From assembly GCA_038065235.1 (NCBI GenBank), contig JBBTRK010000006.1, forward strand, positions 3,255 through 67,254: a stretch of DNA of 64,000 nt. Direction: 5' to 3'. The DNA is from Patescibacteria group bacterium. GTDB taxonomy: Bacteria; Patescibacteriota; Patescibacteriia; PEXW01. Within the stretch, counting starts at the first letter, position 1; each line of letters starts with the position of its first letter. Shown in pieces: positions 1 through 42,551 of the stretch. The notes beneath the pieces are model-generated. The model worked only from the letters and a program-made list of their open reading frames with translations, did not search any database and was not told where the DNA came from. The position numbers and the translations under genes are program-made.

Positions 1-2657
1 CGGTATGTACCATTGATGTACGTTTTAGGAACTTCGCCAACTTTCCATGTGGTTGCTACATGCGTCCACGTATTTGGTTGCCATAGTTCGTAAGAGGTTG
101 TCCACCCGACAAATGAAGATCCTGCTGGGTATAAGATAAAACTTAGCCACTGTCTCCCATCATTTGCGTAGCGGATGAGTAGTCGTTCACTCCCGGCAGC
201 ATCAAAGTAGTTTACCATTTGCATGTATGAGCTAGCTTTCCAATTTTCGGATCGTACCCAAAAGTGTATTGTTCCAGTATTTCCAGCAAGCGGTTGGGTA
301 TATTGTTTTGTGATCAGTGGTTTGCCGGTAGTCTGTTGTACTGGCACAAAATTTGTAGAGGGAGTATTAGGTAATCTACTTACGGTCTTTGGTTTTGACG
401 CAGGATCCAAGGGGTCAGTTTTGGATTGTATTTCAATTTTATCATTTGTGCCATCAGCATCCGTATCAGCCCTCGTGGAGTTTGTGTTGTATTTTAGCTC
501 CTCAGCACCGGTTAAACCGTCATAATCAGCATCTTTGGACGCATCAGTTTCAGCGGAAACAACACGTTCGTCAGCTGTGTTTTTTCCTGCCACATACATC
601 TCGGCGTAGTAACTAGAACCACCAAAGCTGTCATCGTCAGATGCCTTTGGCATCACCATCTCGTAGGTCAAGGTGTACCCGGTATCTTTTGTTGCGTACA
701 CGAATGGCTTACCAGTGAAGACATCATTGGGTATCGTGCTGCGCTTGTTGTATGCGCCAAAATAGTTTTGTGGATCTTCCCCTAACCCAAGGCCTAATGG
801 TTCTATAGAGTTCCCTATGGATTCAATCTGCAAACTGGCATTTGTGTTCGTTACCTTTTGTTTTTCGGGTTTTTCCAATAGGGCGGTTAACGTATCAGGA
901 TAGGCACCTTTACGATTCTTGTAGTTACCCAATGCACTGCGAATGTCATCGACAGCCGAACGCTGCTTATCGAATTTCTGTTGTTCCTCTGTAATCCCAG
1001 AGATTAGGCGTTCTGCCTCATCCCACGAAATTGGGTTGCTTGGCACGTCGACTTTCGGTTGCTCGCCGAGGTGCTCGAAGGTGAGGGCAATACTCAAGCG
1101 TACCTGTTTGTCTTTCAGCTTTTCTACTTTCTCTGGTGGCACGACAATTGTTTCAAACTGCAGCTTGTGCGGTGTGCCATTGAGATTCTCTATCCATATC
1201 GTCAACGTCGTCTGCCCGGCAATGACGCGCAGACGGTCCAAGTTTTCTGCCTTCACGAGTTCATCCAGTGTTTCGCCGACTTCTTTGACAAGGGCGTTGC
1301 GCTTCGTGGCATCTTCTTTGTACGCCGTCACTGTTGCTGGGAGCTTGTCGGCATCCATAGTGATTTTTATCTTATTCAAGCGTCGACCATTCAAATTCTC
1401 CGAGCCTTCGCGGGTAAGGACAATTGCCTTCGTATCCAACGCTTTACGGATGAATGTCACGGTTTCGGTTTTCACTTTCCCAAGGTCGTCACCAGTTGGC
1501 GTCGAGCCGGTAACGCTATCTAGCGGGAAGATTCCATTGGCCGAGTCCCCGGCGGCCGGGTCGATGAGCACCCACTTGTCCTTGAGAGACGTGAGGTCAA
1601 TAAAGAAGAGGGATGGGAACTGGCGAACAATCCCGTAGTACTTGGCATCTTGCATGCGCACTTCGCCATCAACGGCTATAGTGGTGCCACCTGACGCGTA
1701 CGAGCCTTTCAGGCTGACGTACCCACGGGGCGACTTCTTGCCGTTCACGTCCTGTTCCGCAACGAAGGTCGTCACGCTCCCGCTCAACAGCATATCCGAT
1801 GGCAGGTACCGGAAGAGTGTTGAAGAATCGAAGGTTTCAAGGACGGACGTGCTGCTGTCGCCAGTCGTGCAGGTCGTCGCAGTACCCTCCGCTGAACTCA
1901 CGTTGCCCTTTTTCGTGCTGTCCTGCGTGCAGGTGTACTGCAGGGTATAGTTTTTCTTGTCCTCCGAAAGGGTGTAGGTAATAGGGTTCTCCCCTTCTAC
2001 TCGCATGGTGATATATTTCTTTTCTCTTAGTTCATCCAATGTTGCGGGGTAGCTCGTGGTGTTATCATTGTAGAGTGCGAGCGCCGTTCGCAGTTGACCC
2101 GAATAAGCATCGAGCTCCATGTCCCATGCGCGTGCCTTTGCTGGGCTCACTGCACCTACTACTGGTTCGGGCCAACGTTTCGCTGCGCCATTTTGGGGTT
2201 CTACTTTCACGCTCATCGCGAGGCCAATTTCGCCACTCTTCGTACCCGAGAGTACGTCAATCGCTTTCACCAACTGGTCTTCTAGGTTACTCTTGTTAAG
2301 GAACGGCAGAGGAATGTACCCGCGAATAGCCGCGAAGGCGACGCCCCCGAGGATAAGTAAGCCACCCGCGACAGAGGCGAGGAGGACGAGGTGGCGCATG
2401 AGCCAGGATTTACCTTTCGACTTCGCGTTTGGATCGAATGCTTGCTGAATTTCCGTACGTACGCTCTCGGTTGGGGTTTGCTTGGGCACAAAGGCTGGTT
2501 GAGCCGTAGGTGCAGGAATCGCTGGGGCGAGTATTTTTTGGATTTGATCTGCCTGCCATCCTTGTGCCTTCAGCTGTTCAGCAATCTGCGCATCCAAAAG
2601 ACCCGCGGCGCGTGCCTGGGCAATCCACTGCATAACCCCTTCGTATGCATTATCCAT
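1..2657 (-). CDS. Large membrane-anchored extracellular protein, 3' truncated by window edge (start codon near 2655-2657; no stop in window). One TM helix near the N-terminus, thrombospondin-type-3-like DxDxDG Ca-binding motifs and a LamG/ConA-like C-terminal region.
   Basis: Hand translation of the minus strand from the ATG at about 2657 gives a continuous open frame to position 1 (MDNAYEGVMQWIAQARAAGLLDAQ... TM segment LVLLASVAGGLLILGGVAFAAI ... DADYDGLTGAEE, DTDADGTNDKIE ... WQPNTWTHVATTW). Plus-strand ORFs listed in this span (943..1638 and others) are low-complexity shadow frames. Confidence 0.5.
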   Translation of the reverse strand, partial: MDNAYEGVMQWIAQARAAGLLDAQIAEQLKAQGWQADQIQKILAPAIPAPTAQPAFVPKQTPTESVRTEIQQAFDPNAKSKGKSWLMRHLVLLASVAGGLLILGGVAFAAIRGYIPLPFLNKSNLEDQLVKAIDVLSGTKSGEIGLAMSVKVEPQNGAAKRWPEPVVGAVSPAKARAWDMELDAYSGQLRTALALYNDNTTSYPATLDELREKKYITMRVEGENPITYTLSEDKKNYTLQYTCTQDSTKKGNVSSAEGTATTCTTGDSSTSVLETFDSSTLFRYLPSDMLLSGSVTTFVAEQDVNGKKSPRGYVSLKGSYASGGTTIAVDGEVRMQDAKYYGIVRQFPSLFFIDLTSLKDKWVLIDPAAGDSANGIFPLDSVTGSTPTGDDLGKVKTETVTFIRKALDTKAIVLTREGSENLNGRRLNKIKITMDADKLPATVTAYKEDATKRNALVKEVGETLDELVKAENLDRLRVIAGQTTLTIWIENLNGTPHKLQFETIVVPPEKVEKLKDKQVRLSIALTFEHLGEQPKVDVPSNPISWDEAERLISGITEEQQKFDKQRSAVDDIRSALGNYKNRKGAYPDTLTALLEKPEKQKVTNTNASLQIESIGNSIEPLGLGLGEDPQNYFGAYNKRSTIPNDVFTGKPFVYATKDTGYTLTYEMVMPKASDDDSFGGSSYYAEMYVAGKNTADERVVSAETDASKDADYDGLTGAEELKYNTNSTRADTDADGTNDKIEIQSKTDPLDPASKPKTVSRLPNTPSTNFVPVQQTTGKPLITKQYTQPLAGNTGTIHFWVRSENWKASSYMQMVNYFDAAGSERLLIRYANDGRQWLSFILYPAGSSFVGWTTSYELWQPNTWTHVATTWKVGEVPKTYINGTY

Positions 2658-2747
2658 ATGCTGATTTTTATTTTTCGATACATATATCTTACCAGAAAAT
2701 GCGAGTTTTGTCAAAAGACACCCAAGAAACAGTTATGCTACGCTGCA

Positions 2748-3236
2748 TCTATGATCGGCAGTCATCCACACGGTACACATCACCATTTTGCAAGACTCCT
2801 TGTCCTGGTGGTTGGTGCAATCGTGACCGTCGTCATTACCGCGAGTATGGTTGTTGAGCAGCAGTCAGCTGCGACGCCATCAGCTCCGTGTGTACCGCTC
2901 GCGATTATTGACAGCGTCGCGCGTGCTGATCTCATTCTCACGGGTGAGGTCTTCCTCGTCGTGCCTGCAGATCCAGGGTACGCGACAGTCCTCATAACCC
3001 CGGAGCGCGTGTACAAGGGCGAGGTCTTGAAAGCAGGCGTCCGGATTCGTGCCAAAGCAGATTCACTGGTGGGCGGTAGCGTTTTGGATGACCTCCACTT
3101 CGCCTCAAATCAGCCGCCGTACCTCCTCTTCCTGCAGCAGGATACGGATGGCCTGTACCGTACGAGTAAATGCATCGGTAGTCGTTCGCTGGGGAGCGGA
3201 TTGACGGTTGACGAGCGAGCAGCCTTCGGGTTGTAG
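2748..3236 (+). CDS. Small hypothetical protein with N-terminal hydrophobic segment (start uncertain, within ORF 2391..3236)
   Basis: ORF frame 2391..3236; internal Met followed by LLVLVVGAIVTVVITASMVV hydrophobic stretch; no recognisable family. Confidence 0.25.
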   Translation, partial: SMIGSHPHGTHHHFARLLVLVVGAIVTVVITASMVVEQQSAATPSAPCVPLAIIDSVARADLILTGEVFLVVPADPGYATVLITPERVYKGEVLKAGVRIRAKADSLVGGSVLDDLHFASNQPPYLLFLQQDTDGLYRTSKCIGSRSLGSGLTVDERAAFGL

Positions 3237-3345
3237 ATTTTGTCACAAAGAGTCGTACGCTTGAACGTCGCCTGGCGGTAAATTTTCAATCCTGATATCC
3301 TCCTAGACGGATGGGAGTTCCCATCCGTCTTTTGTCCCCTACGCT

Positions 3346-5093
3346 ATGCGCCTGCTCTGGGAATATCTCAAAAAGTATAAAAAGCTCCTGCTCGGAGCCC
3401 TGCTTTTGGCGGCTATCAATCAGGTGTTCTCTCTGCTCGACCCGCAGCTTGGGCGGATATTGGTAGACAAGTATGCCAGCCACGCGAGTACATTTACCCA
3501 GCATGAGTTTATACGCGGCGTCATCCTACTCGTACTCCTGTCTATGGCCGCGGCACTTATGTCCCGCATCGCCAAGAACTTCCAAGATTACTTCGTCAAC
3601 GTTATTGTACAACGCATGGGTGCTCGGTTGTACGCTCATAGTGTGAGCCACTCGTTTTCCCTCCCCTATCAAGCCTTTGAAGATCAACGCTCGGGCGAGC
3701 TCTTGCAGAAATTGCAGAAAGCCCGGACGGACGCGCAAGCCTTGATCACTAGCGCTATTGGCATTCTCTTCTTCTCCCTGATCGGCATCATTTTCGTCCT
3801 GGTGTACGCGAGTACCGTGCACTGGTCCATTGGGCTGGTGTACTTCCTCATGATTCCCATTTTGGGCTTCATCACGTTCTACATTAGCCGGAGAATAAAA
3901 GTTGCACAGAGGCAAATTGTTGCAGAGATGGCCTCGCTTTCCGGTTCTACCACAGAGACCTTGCGGAATGTGGAATTAGTGAAGAGCTTAGGTTTAGACA
4001 GCCAAGAAATTGACCGCCTGAATGCTACGAATGACCGCATTCTCCAGTTGGAGTTGAAGAAAATCATTCTCATTCGAAAATTTAGCTTCATCCAAGGAAC
4101 GCTCATCAACACCTTCCGATCTGCTTTGCTGGTGCTTATGTTCTGGCTCATTTTTCAGCAGCACATATCCTTGGGTGAATACTTTACGCTACTCATTTAC
4201 TCCTTCTTCATTTTCAGCCCATTGGCTGAGTTGGGGATGGTTGCTCAGCACTATCAAGAAGCACGCGCCAGCATGGAGCAGCTGGAAAAAATTCTCAAGC
4301 AACCAGCAGATGAACAACCGTCGCATCCGCTGGCCGTGGATAAGCTCACCGGTATCACGTTCCAGGATGTAGGCTTTCGCTACGCTTCAGCAGTCCACCC
4401 AGCCGTGGAGCACGTGGATGTCACGCTGCGCTCGGGTCAGACTATTGCTTTTGTTGGGCCCTCGGGCTCGGGCAAAACTACCCTCGTGAAACTCCTCGCG
4501 GGATTGTATAGGTCCACTCACGGCAAGTTGCTCTTTAACGATGTAGACAGCCAAGCCATGGATTATCGACAGTTCCGTCAGCGCATTGGCTTGGTGGCAC
4601 AAGAGACGCAATTATTTGCCGGGAGACGGTCCGCGAGAACCTCCTTTTCGTGCGCCCCAAGGCAACTGACGCCGAATGTATGGAGGCTCTGGACGCCGCT
4701 GCCGCTACGAATATTATGCAGCGCTCCGCCCAAGGGTTGGATACGCGCATTGGCGAAGGCGGCCTAAAACTCTCGGGTGGCGAGCGTCAACGTTTGGCCA
4801 TTGCCCGCGCGTTACTTCGCCAGCCTGACCTGATCATTTTTGATGAAGCAACCAGCAGCTTAGATAGCATTACCGAGCAGTCCATTACCGAAACCATCAA
4901 AGATATTACGGCCAAGAAACCACAGCTTATGACCGTGCTCATTGCCCACCGGCTCTCGACTATTGCGCACGCCGACGTCATTTACGTGCTGGAACGCGGC
5001 AAGGTAGTGGAACATGGCAACCATGCGGACCTGCTCAAAAAAGGTGGCCTCTACGCAGCCTTGTGGCGGCAGCAAGGAGCGAGTCAAGCGTAA
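3346..5093 (+). pseudogene. ABC exporter (MsbA-like fused permease + ATPase) interrupted by a frameshift near 4621-4626
   Basis: ORF 3346..4767 carries six-TM permease region and Walker A (GPSGSGKTT). ORF 4650..5093 in another frame carries ABC signature LSGGERQRLAIARAL and Walker B LIIFDEATSSLD. The expected conserved junction LFAG-TVRENLLF is restored by removing 2 nt from gggAGacggtcc. Confidence 0.7.
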
Positions 5094-6790: not shown

Positions 6791-6801
6791 GCTCCAACTT
6801 T

Positions 6802-6897
6802 GTCATTCTGAGTCCCGCAGTAGCGGGACGAAGAATCTTGCCGGACTTTCCGGGTAGCAAGATCCTTCCCCCTCGATGGGCTCGGGGTCAGGATGAA
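6802..6897. repeat. Structured palindromic intergenic repeat, subfamily 1 copy A (GTCATTCTGAG...GAAGAATCTTGC...GCAAGATCC...TCAGGATGA); contains GTCCCGCAGTAGCGGGAC hairpin
   Basis: Seen directly: nested inverted repeats; same architecture at about 23567, 29017, 34012. Confidence 0.7.
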
Positions 6898-6913
6898 AAA
6901 TAAGAATGCACGC

Positions 6914-9476: not shown

Positions 9477-9576
9477 GACAACTCCTTTTGCAATGAGCTT
9501 TCTTCAATCTTCTGGCTATCCAATCATAGTTCGAGTGTTCCGTCAAGCCTAGAGCGAACCCTGGTATACTGCCCAC

Positions 9577-22122: not shown

Positions 22123-22205
22123 ACGAGTAGTATAGCATCGGAACCCATCCCTAATTTCACAAAAGGTATAGTAAAGGAACGCATTGTACTCCTTCAAATC
22201 AGTAC

Positions 22206-23495: not shown

Positions 23496-23566
23496 AGCAA
23501 AAACGGCTAGGGTGAGAGGGTTAGGTTAGCCGAAAAGCTGGAGTCCGTAAAGGGTCACCCTCTCTT

Positions 23567-23655
23567 GTCATTCTGAGGCCGAGCTCACCGAGGCCGAAGA
23601 ATCTTGCTGCCTTATTAAAAGCGCGCAAGATCCTTCGCTGTTGCTCAGGATGACA
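23567..23655. repeat. Structured palindromic intergenic repeat, subfamily 1 copy B
   Basis: GTCATTCTGAGGCCGAGCTCACCGAGGCCGAAGAATCTTGC...GCAAGATCCTTCG...CTCAGGATGACA; reverse-complement orientation of copy D. Confidence 0.7.
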
Positions 23656-23747
23656 AATGAATATACAGCTATCTGTCCCAAACCCCCGGACTGCTAAAAA
23701 GAAGAAGCCCCGCAGTGGTGCAGGGCTTTAAAATGCAAGCAGACTAT

Positions 23748-28962: not shown

Positions 28963-29005
28963 ACGGTTACGAATTACGAATGAAAGATACGAATGGGATC
29001 AAAAT
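28963..29005 (-). promoter_or_regulatory. Upstream motif with ATTCGTA heptamer direct repeats immediately 5' of hppA ATG (shared with cmk upstream region)
   Basis: Sense strand: ...CCCATTCGTATCTTTCATTCGTAATTCGTAACCGT-ATG; near-identical ...ATTCGTATCTCTATTCGTAATTCGTAACCG-ATG before cmk. Confidence 0.35.
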
Positions 29006-29016
29006 ATTTATTTTAT

Positions 29017-29142
29017 GTCATTCTGACCCCGAGTAATCGAGGGGGAAGAATCTTGCCGCTATTTACCTTGCGCAAGATCCTCCCGCCTGCCTCGTCACTA
29101 CGAGTTCGGCGGGCAGGTCGGCCTGCTGGCCTCAGGATGACA
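29017..29142. repeat. Structured palindromic intergenic repeat, subfamily 1 copy C (longest copy)
   Basis: TGTCATTCTGACCCCGAG...GGGGAAGAATCTTGCCGC...GCGCAAGATCCTCCCGCC...GGCGGGCAGG...CTCAGGATGACA between hppA start and nusA end. Confidence 0.7.
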
Positions 29143-31624: not shown

Positions 31625-32437
31625 TTACCGTTGTGTTCGCTTCGCGCGCTTCTTCGCTCGAGGTGCTCTCTTCTTTATACTCTTCTTCAGCTTCTTTGTC
31701 TGGATGACGCGTTTCTTCGGTTTACCAGTTGCGACCCGCGTGCGTCCTCGTCGAGTGGGTTTTGCTTTACGGAACACCGTAGGTTTCTTCTTCTTATTTA
31801 TGAATTTTTTCGAAGCTTTTTGGGCTGCCGTTTGAACAGGTGCAAAACTCATCCTGTGTGCCAGTGTTGGGCCGTGCATGGCGAGGAGCTTGGCGTGCAA
31901 GGGCGTACCGTAACCCTTGTGCACGTGAAAGTGGAATTTGGGGTACAGCCGGTTGAGCTCCGAGCTCATGATTTGGTCGCGCACAACCTTGGCGATGATT
32001 GATGCGGCGCTGATGCTCCGCTCCAGCGCATCGCCGTCGATGATGTTCACGACCGGTGTTGCACCGAGGTCGATTTTGAACGCATCTACTAAGACCGCAT
32101 CGGGGGAGACGTGGAGCTTCTCCACAGCTTTCTTCAGTGCAGCAAGGTTCGCTTTGTGTACGCCGTCCTTATCGATTTCGGTAACGGGTACGACGTATGC
32201 TGTCCAGGCCAGAGCTTTCTTCGTAATCGAAACGAACGCCCGTTCGCGCTGCGTCGGGGTTAACATTTTCGAATCGTAGAGCTCGGTGGGAATATCCGTC
32301 TCGTCCAAAATTACCGCCGCGGTCACCAGCGGTCCTGCCCAGCTGCCTTTTCCTGCCTCATCCACTCCAGCAATCAGCCGATGTCCTGCTTTTCGCAATT
32401 TCGTTTCGTGGTGGTTGGTGGGGGCTGATTTTGGCAT
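31625..32437 (-). CDS. rnhB: Ribonuclease HII with about 60-aa Lys/Arg-rich C-terminal extension
   Basis: IAGVDEAGKGSWAGPLVTAAV (DEAGRG motif), KVVRDQIM, HKGYG...; tail KKKKPTVFRKAKPTRRGRTR...KKRAKRTQR. Confidence 0.85.
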   Translation of the reverse strand: MPKSAPTNHHETKLRKAGHRLIAGVDEAGKGSWAGPLVTAAVILDETDIPTELYDSKMLTPTQRERAFVSITKKALAWTAYVVPVTEIDKDGVHKANLAALKKAVEKLHVSPDAVLVDAFKIDLGATPVVNIIDGDALERSISAASIIAKVVRDQIMSSELNRLYPKFHFHVHKGYGTPLHAKLLAMHGPTLAHRMSFAPVQTAAQKASKKFINKKKKPTVFRKAKPTRRGRTRVATGKPKKRVIQTKKLKKSIKKRAPRAKKRAKRTQR

Positions 32438-32470
32438 GCAGCCAGTATACTCTATCCCTGTCTTTTTTAC

Positions 32471-32527
32471 ACAAAAATAAAAGGGCTCGAGGCCTGTATA
32501 TCATAGAGATTAAGAGGCTGAGCCCTT
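32471..32527 (-). terminator. Rho-independent terminator (8-bp GC-rich stem + T-tract) 35-40 nt upstream of rnhB start
   Basis: AAGGGCTC-loop-GAGCCCTT followed by TTTTATTTTT on minus strand. Confidence 0.5.
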
Positions 32528-32894
32528 AAATAGTTTAGTGAGTAGACGTGGGCCACCCGGTTCGCAACTCCTCAACGAGAGCAGTCGTCAACCGGGCAGC
32601 TCATGCCATGAACCTCGCTAAACTTTGCATTCATCGTTTTCCACATTTCTCGATGAATAGTGACTACCACTCTTGTGGTTATACCCCTTGCCCGAAAGCG
32701 TAAGAGTTAACCTTTTATGCTAGGGAATTTTTATATTCTCCTAGTTTTTCTTTTCAGTCAGCCGTGTGGACGGCTATGACGAGTAGTAGAACAGAAGCCC
32801 CACAACGTTTGGTAGTGCCAGCTGTCGTACTTCTCGTTTCCTTGGGTTTTCCAAGGGTAGTAGTCTGCGGATTCAAGGAGCGTTCTTAATTTCT
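32475..32894 (-). ncRNA. Orphan structured RNA candidate (about 420 nt), class unassigned, bounded by consensus promoter and intrinsic terminator
   Basis: Minus strand: TTGACA-17 nt-TATACT at about 32929-32901; terminator hairpin AAGGGCTC...GAGCCCTT + TTTTATTTTT at about 32527-32471; no ORF >=60 aa; multiple internal hairpins. RNase P P4 (GGAAAGUCCGG) and tmRNA tRNA-like-end motifs not found. Confidence 0.3.
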
Positions 32895-32900
32895 ATCAGG

Positions 32901-32929
32901 AGTATAGCACCATTTTGACCCCATGTCAA
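32901..32929 (-). promoter_or_regulatory. Sigma-70 consensus promoter TTGACA-17-TATACT driving the ncRNA candidate
   Basis: Exact -35 hexamer, 17-nt spacer, 5/6 -10. Confidence 0.5.
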
Positions 32930-32961: not shown

Positions 32962-33522
32962 CTACAGGCCTTTCTTCCAGGCTTGGAATTTGGCTTTTAC
33001 CTTCCGGACGACCGTCGGGATAGGGATACGGCTGGTGTTGAGGACGAAGTCGTACTGGTCTTTCTGCAGGAAGTCTACCCCGTAGAGTATGCGGTAGCGC
33101 TTCCGGTCAGAGCGCACGCGTTTCGCATGGAGGCGCATCACGGAAGCAATTGACTGCTGTTCTCCCAGTTCGCTCTGCCGTTCGCGGCGGTTCTGCAGCG
33201 TCCGCTTAGCACCGATGCGTGGGCTTACGGTGAGCAGGACTTTAAAAGAGCTCGGGAAGAAGTGCCAGGCGGTCCGGCTGCTGATGACGATGCGTGGTTG
33301 GTGGCTAACCGTTCGAACGAGCTGCTGGTCAAAGGCTTTGTCTCCAGCATTTGGGTGCGCCTCTGACCAGGCATTAAACTCGTGGAGCGACATGCCTTTC
33401 TGCTGCGCGGCCTTCCGGCGAAGCTGCCCGACGTCTATTGTCTTGTAACGCAGGAGCTTGGCCAAGCGGTCCGTGACTGTCGATTTTCCTGACCCCGGCG
33501 CGCCGTTGATGGTGATGATCAT
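32962..33522 (-). CDS. cmk: Cytidylate kinase-like P-loop kinase
   Basis: MIITINGAPGSGKSTV P-loop, 186 aa, archaeal/short-type CMP kinase architecture. Confidence 0.55.
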   Translation of the reverse strand: MIITINGAPGSGKSTVTDRLAKLLRYKTIDVGQLRRKAAQQKGMSLHEFNAWSEAHPNAGDKAFDQQLVRTVSHQPRIVISSRTAWHFFPSSFKVLLTVSPRIGAKRTLQNRRERQSELGEQQSIASVMRLHAKRVRSDRKRYRILYGVDFLQKDQYDFVLNTSRIPIPTVVRKVKAKFQAWKKGL

Positions 33523-33985: not shown

Positions 33986-34101
33986 GTCAATGCGAGCCCG
34001 CCATATTTTTTGTCATCCTGAGCAACAGCGAAGGATCTTGCACGCTTTTGAAGAGTACGGCAAGATTCTTCGGCCTCGGTGAGCTCGGCCTCAGAATGAC
34101 A
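33986..34101. repeat. Compound repeat: subfamily-2 head fragment (TGTCAATGCGAGCCCG) + complete subfamily-1 copy D (34012-34101)
   Basis: GTCATCCTGAGCAACAGCGAAGGATCTTGC...GCAAGATTCTTCGGCCTCGGTGAGCTCGGCCTCAGAATGACA; reverse complement of copy B with transition (wobble-compatible) differences. Confidence 0.7.
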
Positions 34102-34142
34102 ATTGGAAAACCCAAGCGGCAGTGTAGCTGTGGAAAACTCGG

Positions 34143-42434: not shown

Positions 42435-42477
42435 ATACAAAAACGATCAGCCACCACTGCGTGATGTCTGCTCGTTT

Positions 42478-42551
42478 TGGTGGACCTGAGGGGAATCGAA
42501 CCCCTATACCCCGGATGCAAACCGGGTGCTCTACCACTAAGCTACAGGCCC
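42478..42551 (-). tRNA. tRNA-Ala (anticodon TGC), CCA encoded
   Basis: GGGCCTGTAGCTTAGTGGTAGAGCACCCGGTTTGCATCCGGGGTATAGGGGTTCGATTCCCCTCAGGTCCACCA. Confidence 0.85.

Follow-up and report, generated by a model that had tools for sequence, protein, structure and literature searches.

A probable lineage-restricted gene for a structured RNA of ~420 nt, located between rnhB and a cytidylate-kinase-like gene in groundwater Parcubacteria

What is encoded in the 524-nt gap that separates a cytidylate-kinase-like gene from rnhB in a groundwater bacterium of the Patescibacteria (Parcubacteria-type)? The gap lies within the window, by which we mean the whole stretch of genomic DNA that was analysed (64 kb); all positions are window coordinates, and the RNA discussed here is read from the minus strand. 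On that strand the gene order is S-adenosylmethionine (AdoMet) decarboxylase, a membrane protein, the cytidylate-kinase-like (Cmk-like) gene, the gap, rnhB, a methyltransferase, yraN and nusA. A preliminary description of the interval 32471-32929 had raised two possibilities, an attenuator-type leader of great length and an unclassified, discrete non-coding RNA (ncRNA). The latter is supported by the lack of an Rfam match, a conserved promoter and terminator, covariation, the lack of a conserved open reading frame (ORF) and a TATACT box belonging to rnhB itself. We consider it probable (about 0.72) that the gap holds a new, lineage-restricted and independently transcribed structured ncRNA gene of ~420 nt, the product of which acts in trans.

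The exact TTGACA-17-TATACT promoter of the preliminary description was present, and its spacer was found to end in TGC, giving the TG-n of an extended -10 element. This promoter agrees with the sigma-70 consensus at 11 of 12 positions, a level reached by four sites in the window versus 0.6 expected from shuffles. The other three (TTGACA-16/17-TATACT or TATAGT; 24172-24144, 49948 and 38205, all on the minus strand) precede protein genes (a small one that has a GGAGG Shine-Dalgarno sequence and starts with GTG, one of 286 aa, and the rpsO region), and none of them belongs to a further ncRNA. High constitutive expression of the RNA is predicted on account of the quality of its promoter. The GC-stem/T-tract terminator reported earlier was likewise recovered, as the hairpin AAGGGCUC...GAGCCCUU (~-19 kcal/mol) with the U-tract UUUUAUUUUU, the end of which lies 35 nt from the rnhB ATG (32437). 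A simple terminator scan had missed this hairpin because its loop is longer than 8 nt. From the promoter and the terminator, with a predicted start site at ~32894, we infer a discrete, stable transcript of ~422 nt. Its minimum free energy was -154.1 kcal/mol as compared to -109.1 ± 6.4 for shuffled sequences (z = -7.07; 0/100 shuffles as good).

Homologues were sought by three routes: through RnhB homologues and their contigs, through Cmk-like homologues, and by a motif scan of metagenome contigs. The motif was the invariant block CTACTRCTCGTCATAG-N10-20-CTGNCTG, which matched 8 contigs. A scan of genome contigs with the RnhB alignment used overly general peptide patterns and returned mostly unrelated bacteria, only one contig (L006) being useful. 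In total, 11 distinct full-length copies and one partial copy were recovered, all on groundwater or subsurface contigs of the Parcubacteria type. An 82-kb contig from the Hainich aquifer carries the same locus, and the NCBI entry identical to the Cmk-like protein of the window derives from a Patescibacteria metagenome-assembled genome. The RNA sits between the cmk-like gene and rnhB in every homologue. Among the 11 distinct copies the promoter TTGACA-17-TGn-TATACT is identical without exception, and all 11 end in a GC-rich hairpin with a U-tract, the stem of which covaries (6/10 pairs compensatory across homologues). Over the same genome pairs, the nucleotide identity of the RNA was 0.64-0.77, as compared to 0.53-0.62 in cmk and 0.60-0.80 in rnhB; the RNA region is as conserved as its coding neighbours, or more so.

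The RNAalifold consensus of the 11 sequences has 99 pairs (Table 1). In this alignment 97.1% of cells were paired versus 86% in shuffles, and 39 of the 99 pairs had changed on both sides, as compared to 22 ± 2.5 in shuffles; 0/500 shuffles reached 39, and controls in which the partners were slid by 1-3 columns gave at most 10 such pairs. The conservation and covariation check in related genomes that had been proposed for this locus came out in favour of a structured RNA. The invariant G-U pairs identify the minus strand as the strand that folds.

Table 1. Coordinates of the RNA gene, its predicted structural elements and the adjoining genes.
Feature	Position	Strand	Remarks
Sigma-70-type promoter of the RNA gene	32901..32929	-	-35 TTGACA at 32929-32924, 17-nt spacer, -10 TATACT at 32906-32901
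Predicted ncRNA transcript, ~422 nt	32473..32894	-	both ends placed from promoter and terminator
5' leader segment	32862..32894	-	mostly unpaired, poorly conserved (55% mean pairwise identity) except for a GCUCYUU block
Conserved core domain	32666..32861	-	P1 closes a five-way junction holding P2-P3, P4, P5 and P6
Helix P1, long-range	32861-32852 with 32675-32666	-	invariant
P2-P3 arm, CGAGAAGUA...UACUACUCG	32780..32836	-	invariant block CUGUYCUACURCUCGUCAUAG
P4 hairpin	32754..32779	-	loop CCACA (32769-32765), 5' partner of the kissing loop
P5 hairpin	32720..32744	-	invariant loop UAUAAAAA
P6 hairpin, GGUUAAC...GUAUAACC	32677..32712	-	4/14 pairs compensatory
P7 hairpin, AUUCAUCG...CGAUGAAU	32629..32658	-	loop UGUGG (32645-32641), 3' partner of the kissing loop
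P8-P9 irregular hairpin, ~93 nt	32532..32624	-	sequence varies, structure kept; conserved internal loop GGUUNAUG / UAC
Intrinsic terminator	32473..32527	-	GC-rich interrupted hairpin 32527-32481, then U-tract 32482-32473
Separate -10 box TATACT	32444..32449	-	6 nt before the rnhB ATG; outside the RNA gene
Cytidylate-kinase-like P-loop gene (PF13189)	32962..33522	-	upstream neighbour of the RNA
rnhB, RNase HII with Lys/Arg-rich C-terminal tail	31625..32437	-	downstream neighbour; ATG at 32437

The two parts of the molecule differ in how they are conserved. The core (P1-P6) has a mean pairwise identity of 78%, with 47% of its columns invariant, and in P8-P9 the corresponding values are 62% and 23%, with compensatory changes at 22 of 31 pairs. 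The 3' hairpin P8-P9 thus appears, from these comparisons, to be constrained mainly in shape. The constraint on the core falls on its sequence, which suggests specific tertiary or intermolecular contacts. Within the core, 6 of the 8 pairs of P5 are compensatory (in an alignment, A10, that includes one chance row), and the linkers are A-rich (CUGAAAAGAAAAAC and UAAAAGG). The invariant sequence CUACUAC occurs twice, in the 5' strand of P1 (32861-32852) and the 3' strand of P2 (32788-32780), and either copy could pair with the single GUGGUAG in the 3' strand of P1 (32675-32666). Because of this competition an alternative conformer is possible; all three blocks are invariant and lie beyond the reach of covariation. 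Two other candidate pairings were examined by eye, one between the terminator U-tract and the P5 loop UAUAAAAA, the other between the 5' GCUCYUU block and other segments, and both were rejected as inconsistent across members.

A long-range contact joins the loops of P4 and P7 (L4 and L7). P7 was misaligned by MAFFT and was handled separately; its stem occurs as CAUCG/CGAUG, CUUCG/CGAAG, CUCCG/CGGAG and CUUCA/UGAAG. The window has CCACA/UGUGG as its pair of loops, most relatives have CCAUG/CAUGG or CCAUGA/UCAUGG, and one contig (L092) has CCCAC/GUGGG. The resulting kissing loop spans 5-6 bp, and in a concatenated alignment of the P4 and P7 hairpins 2/5 of its pairs were doubly changed. When the genomic sequences were aligned by fitting to a covariance model of P4-P7, an alignment that leans towards the model and contains one chance row (E = 0.73) touching P5 only, 99% of cells were paired and 17/43 pairs were compensatory, a result reached by 0/500 shuffles. 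In this model-fitted alignment the kissing helix showed the changes UA:7/CG:3 and GC:7/AU:3, and it failed only in L092, through a register shift of one column; inspected by eye, this member forms CCCAC/GUGGG. The loops of most members contain the palindrome CAUG, but the window pair CCACA/UGUGG is non-palindromic, and the conserved contact is therefore the heterotypic one between L4 and L7. It may be either an intramolecular docking or an intermolecular bridge between RNA copies. An all-against-all column covariation scan for more tertiary pairs gave hundreds of co-varying column pairs, a signal that is uninformative because the split of the members into two subclades itself makes columns co-vary.

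The pattern of change also bears on two further explanations. The first is that the interval is an mRNA or a dual-function RNA encoding a small protein. ORFs of 26-51 aa do occur in individual sequences, and the interval has, as was claimed for it, no ORF of 60 aa or more, the largest having 51 aa (plus strand) and 40 aa (minus strand). None of these ORFs keeps its frame, length or sequence across members, however; the lengths of indels do not keep to multiples of three, substitutions cluster in the stems, where they occur as paired changes, and no arrangement of Shine-Dalgarno sequence plus start is conserved. We regard a coding function as highly improbable. Least probable of all the explanations weighed here is a non-functional conserved spacer or decayed mobile-element remnant, in which the hairpins would be incidental. 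The genome does carry palindromic repeat elements, but the RNA is single-copy within the window, and searches of phage and plasmid collections by blastn gave no match to it. Two motif scans of viral contigs gave 42 and 0 matches, none of them homologous by nhmmer, against an estimated ~19 chance matches. A remnant would also be at odds with a conservation at least equal to that of the neighbouring coding genes, with compensatory changes far above those of the controls, and with a promoter that is intact in every member.

Could the RNA instead belong to a family already described? At gathering thresholds, the 4227 models of Rfam 15, which include RNase P, transfer-messenger RNA (tmRNA), 6S, signal recognition particle (SRP) RNA, OLE, ROOL, GOLLD, raiA, HEARO and riboswitches, found only five tRNAs in the window. 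With permissive filters and E-values up to 10, the interval gave three noise matches of 9.9-13.6 bits (E = 3-7.5), as compared to thresholds of 50-74, so that the Rfam check suggested in the preliminary description yielded no family for the interval. The same models gave nothing within the RNA of four divergent members (L097, L099, L005 and L091). ARAGORN reported five tRNAs in the window and no tmRNA. The absence of the P4 motif of RNase P and of a tRNA-like tmRNA end, both stated earlier, was borne out in the interval: GGAAAGUCCGG (CR-I), allowing up to 2 mismatches, had no match inside 32471-32929, and the T-arm/CCA pattern matched in the window only at tRNA-Ala (42477-42502). The window has one exact P4-like 11-mer, at 6841-6851 on the minus strand; it is part of a 95-nt repeat element and is without an RNase P model match. 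In the consensus fold the first 33 nt are left unpaired and the terminator hairpin forms the 3' end, with no end pairing of the RNase P type.

These results bear on the proposal that the gene encodes a highly divergent housekeeping RNA (RNase P RNA, tmRNA, 6S or SRP RNA) missed by current models. Its size, its strong promoter of the kind found at stable RNA genes, and its combination of a conserved core with a variable periphery would fit RNase P RNA or tmRNA. Set against this are the Rfam searches to E = 10 of the window copy and of the divergent members, the negative ARAGORN result, the lack of a P4 motif and of a T-arm/CCA end in the interval, and a fold that has unpaired 5' and 3' ends and is branched, not a rod with a central bubble. 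We judge this proposal very unlikely. None of the tests that could be applied placed the RNA with RNase P, tmRNA, 6S, riboswitch leaders or any Rfam family, and it was therefore filed as a new family without detectable relatives.

The apparent range of this family is narrow. No large intergenic region at rnhB or cmk was present in sister clades with 52-57% identical RnhB (L094, L103-L105), in a cmk-like outgroup (L154) or in a Kerfeldbacteria contig (L043), although in each of these the RNA could lie elsewhere in the genome. Neither nhmmer nor the core covariance model found a match in the outgroups inspected, and literature searches found no description of such an ncRNA in Patescibacteria. 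By these sequence comparisons the family appears to be previously undescribed and to be found only in one clade of groundwater Parcubacteria.

The nearest competitor to a free-standing RNA is a very long leader, a riboswitch or attenuator, that would act in cis on the rnhB-methyltransferase-yraN cluster. A ligand or factor would then be sensed by the 5' core, and the terminator would serve as the expression platform. The RNA and rnhB are co-oriented, the terminator lies immediately upstream of rnhB in most members, and the architecture of a junction plus a kissing loop recalls that of cobalamin riboswitches. In 4/11 sequences, moreover, a duplex of -15 to -23 kcal/mol can form between the 3' strand of P9 and the terminator 5' arm. 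In the other 7/11, however, this duplex is weak (-5.6 to -11 kcal/mol), and the best upstream partner of the terminator 5' arm maps to differing places among members, so that no antiterminator is conserved. P8-P9 is a stable, covarying hairpin, unlike an expression platform, and 420 nt far exceeds the length of any riboswitch leader known to us.

The position of the RNA relative to rnhB argues in the same direction. As reported, rnhB has a TATACT box of its own 6 nt before its ATG, and relatives keep this box 6-8 nt before the ATG; a read-through transcript would have no Shine-Dalgarno sequence. The location of the box implies a leaderless rnhB mRNA. TATACT-N6-ATG occurs 4 times in the window, at 9565 and 56360 on the plus strand and at 22134 and 32449 (rnhB) on the minus strand, which points to a common use, in this organism, of leaderless mRNAs that begin at the ATG; the three ATGs other than that of rnhB are candidate gene starts only. 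The spacer between the RNA and rnhB is 180 nt in one relative (L095), and in another (L098) the gap is 820 nt and holds, on the opposite strand and convergent with the RNA, an ORF of 206 aa (2643-3263, plus strand). This ORF is hydrophobic, has several predicted membrane-spanning stretches, and occurs in L098 only. The 820-nt separation and the lack of a conserved antiterminator pairing speak against the attenuator-type leader that had been put forward earlier, and we regard a cis-acting leader as improbable.

Several points nonetheless weigh against a free-standing, trans-acting ncRNA. Every member belongs to a single narrow clade (NusA 82-96% identical), so that few independent events underlie the covariation, and the model has an effective sequence number of 1.24. 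P1 and P2 never vary, and are thus conserved but unproven by covariation. The RNA always adjoins the same two genes, so a link to them is conceivable, and four of the sequences have the stable P9-terminator duplex described above. The intervening ORF of L098 is without a Pfam match. Lastly, the role of the RNA in a ribonucleoprotein (RNP), in an assembly or as a catalyst is one that we purely infer.

Taking these points together with the rest, we favour a discrete ncRNA, presumably neither a cis regulator nor an mRNA. Transcription would start at its own near-consensus, extended -10 sigma-70 promoter and end at its own intrinsic terminator, and rnhB would be transcribed from a separate promoter as a leaderless mRNA. 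The product would fold into a sequence-invariant 5' core, the five-way junction closed by P1, and a 3' part made up of P7 and the long P8-P9. The L4-L7 kissing pairing would either dock both parts in one molecule or bridge two RNA copies. Once folded, the core might act in trans as the RNA of an RNP, as an RNA-only assembly or as a catalyst.

To our knowledge, bacterial ncRNAs longer than ~300 nt with intricate folds supported by covariation are rare, and nearly all those we know of that are functionally understood serve as ribozymes or form the core of a major RNP (rRNA, RNase P, tmRNA, group I/II introns). Some have lately proved to be RNA-only assemblies (ROOL, GOLLD, OLE). Patescibacteria have genomes of ~1 Mb that are under strong reduction, and when a 420-nt non-coding gene in such a reduced genome has a promoter among the strongest of the region and is better conserved than the protein genes beside it, the RNA is probably important to the cell. 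A further suggestion, which we offer tentatively and consider rather unlikely, is that it represents a new class of large functional RNA of ultra-small, host-dependent Parcubacteria, working as a ribozyme or, in the manner of ROOL and GOLLD, assembling through L4-L7 with or without protein; its invariant five-way-junction core would perform a housekeeping task that is run by protein elsewhere. What is delivered here is a concrete candidate, with coordinates, a structure model, 11 homologues and a core covariance model. If the RNA is restricted to its clade and has a mundane role, it would be only a modest addition to the RNA catalogue.

Other features of the locus and its surroundings were observed. 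Homologues of the Cmk-like protein are 51-85% identical inside the RNA-bearing clade, after which identity falls abruptly to 42% or less. Many of the next-best matches are from DPANN archaea (Woesearchaeota, Nanoarchaeota), and the kinase may be of archaeal type or horizontally acquired. The C-terminus of RnhB (31625-31830, minus strand) is a Lys/Arg-rich tail of ~65 aa (KKPTVFRKAKPTRRGRTRV...KRAKRTQR), which is absent from the 200-210-aa RnhB homologues of other bacteria and is present, with varying length, within the clade. In L092, ~450-460 nt of GC-rich palindromic repeats (2994-3440) lie between the cmk-like gene and the RNA promoter, and the RNA gene is intact; the repeats include CCCCTTCGAAAGGGGAGG and GGGTTACC...GGTAACCC, and part of them resembles positions 4697-4791 of another contig (L101). 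The window itself has a structured repeat of ~95-110 nt in four intergenic copies (6795-6905 and 23560-23670 on the minus strand, 34000-34110 and 29005-29095 on the plus strand), of the form GTCATCCTGA...GAAGGATCTTGC...GCAAGATTCTTCG...CTCAGAATGACAA, in which inverted repeats are nested. A 26-mer is identical between two copies. Spurious ORFs arise from the copies, and the exact P4-like 11-mer occurs by chance in one of them.

Compared with known systems, the RNA is superficially similar to RNase P RNA, which measures 350-420 nt, likewise has a strong promoter and a terminator of its own, and combines a conserved core of several helices with variable hairpins at the periphery and loop contacts over long range, but the P4 helix, CR-I/CR-V, the paired ends (P1) and an Rfam RNaseP match are all lacking. 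With tmRNA it shares its length and a pseudoknot-like tertiary pairing; unlike tmRNA, it has neither an acceptor/T-arm domain nor a tag reading frame, and ARAGORN and Rfam were negative. Riboswitch leaders built on a junction and a kissing loop, such as those for cobalamin, resemble it in having a multi-way junction, a loop contact to a downstream hairpin and a terminator before a co-oriented gene. The RNA of the window differs in being twice the usual length, in showing no conserved antiterminator and no riboswitch model match, and in that the downstream rnhB has its own promoter and is uncoupled from the RNA in L098. 6S RNA has a similar, abundant-type promoter, and because RNAs of the 6S kind are poorly conserved in sequence between lineages, family models could miss such an RNA. 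6S RNA is, however, an extended rod of ~180 nt with a central bubble, whereas the RNA here is 422 nt long, consists of a five-way junction plus hairpins, and has no Rfam 6S match.

From ROOL, GOLLD, OLE and raiA the RNA of the window is set apart in matching none of their Rfam models, in its Parcubacteria host and apparently very narrow phyletic range, and in its fixed housekeeping gene context, away from tRNAs and prophages; at 420 nt it is also smaller than ROOL, GOLLD and OLE. Like these RNAs, it is a long, free-standing and intricately folded bacterial ncRNA of unassigned biochemical function, and it shares with them invariant junction and loop nucleotides, A-rich strands and covarying loop-loop contacts. 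In ROOL and GOLLD, the covarying kissing loops had long been interpreted as tertiary contacts but turned out to bridge separate molecules (bioRxiv 10.1101/2024.12.08.627333). By analogy, the L4-L7 contact could be of the same kind.

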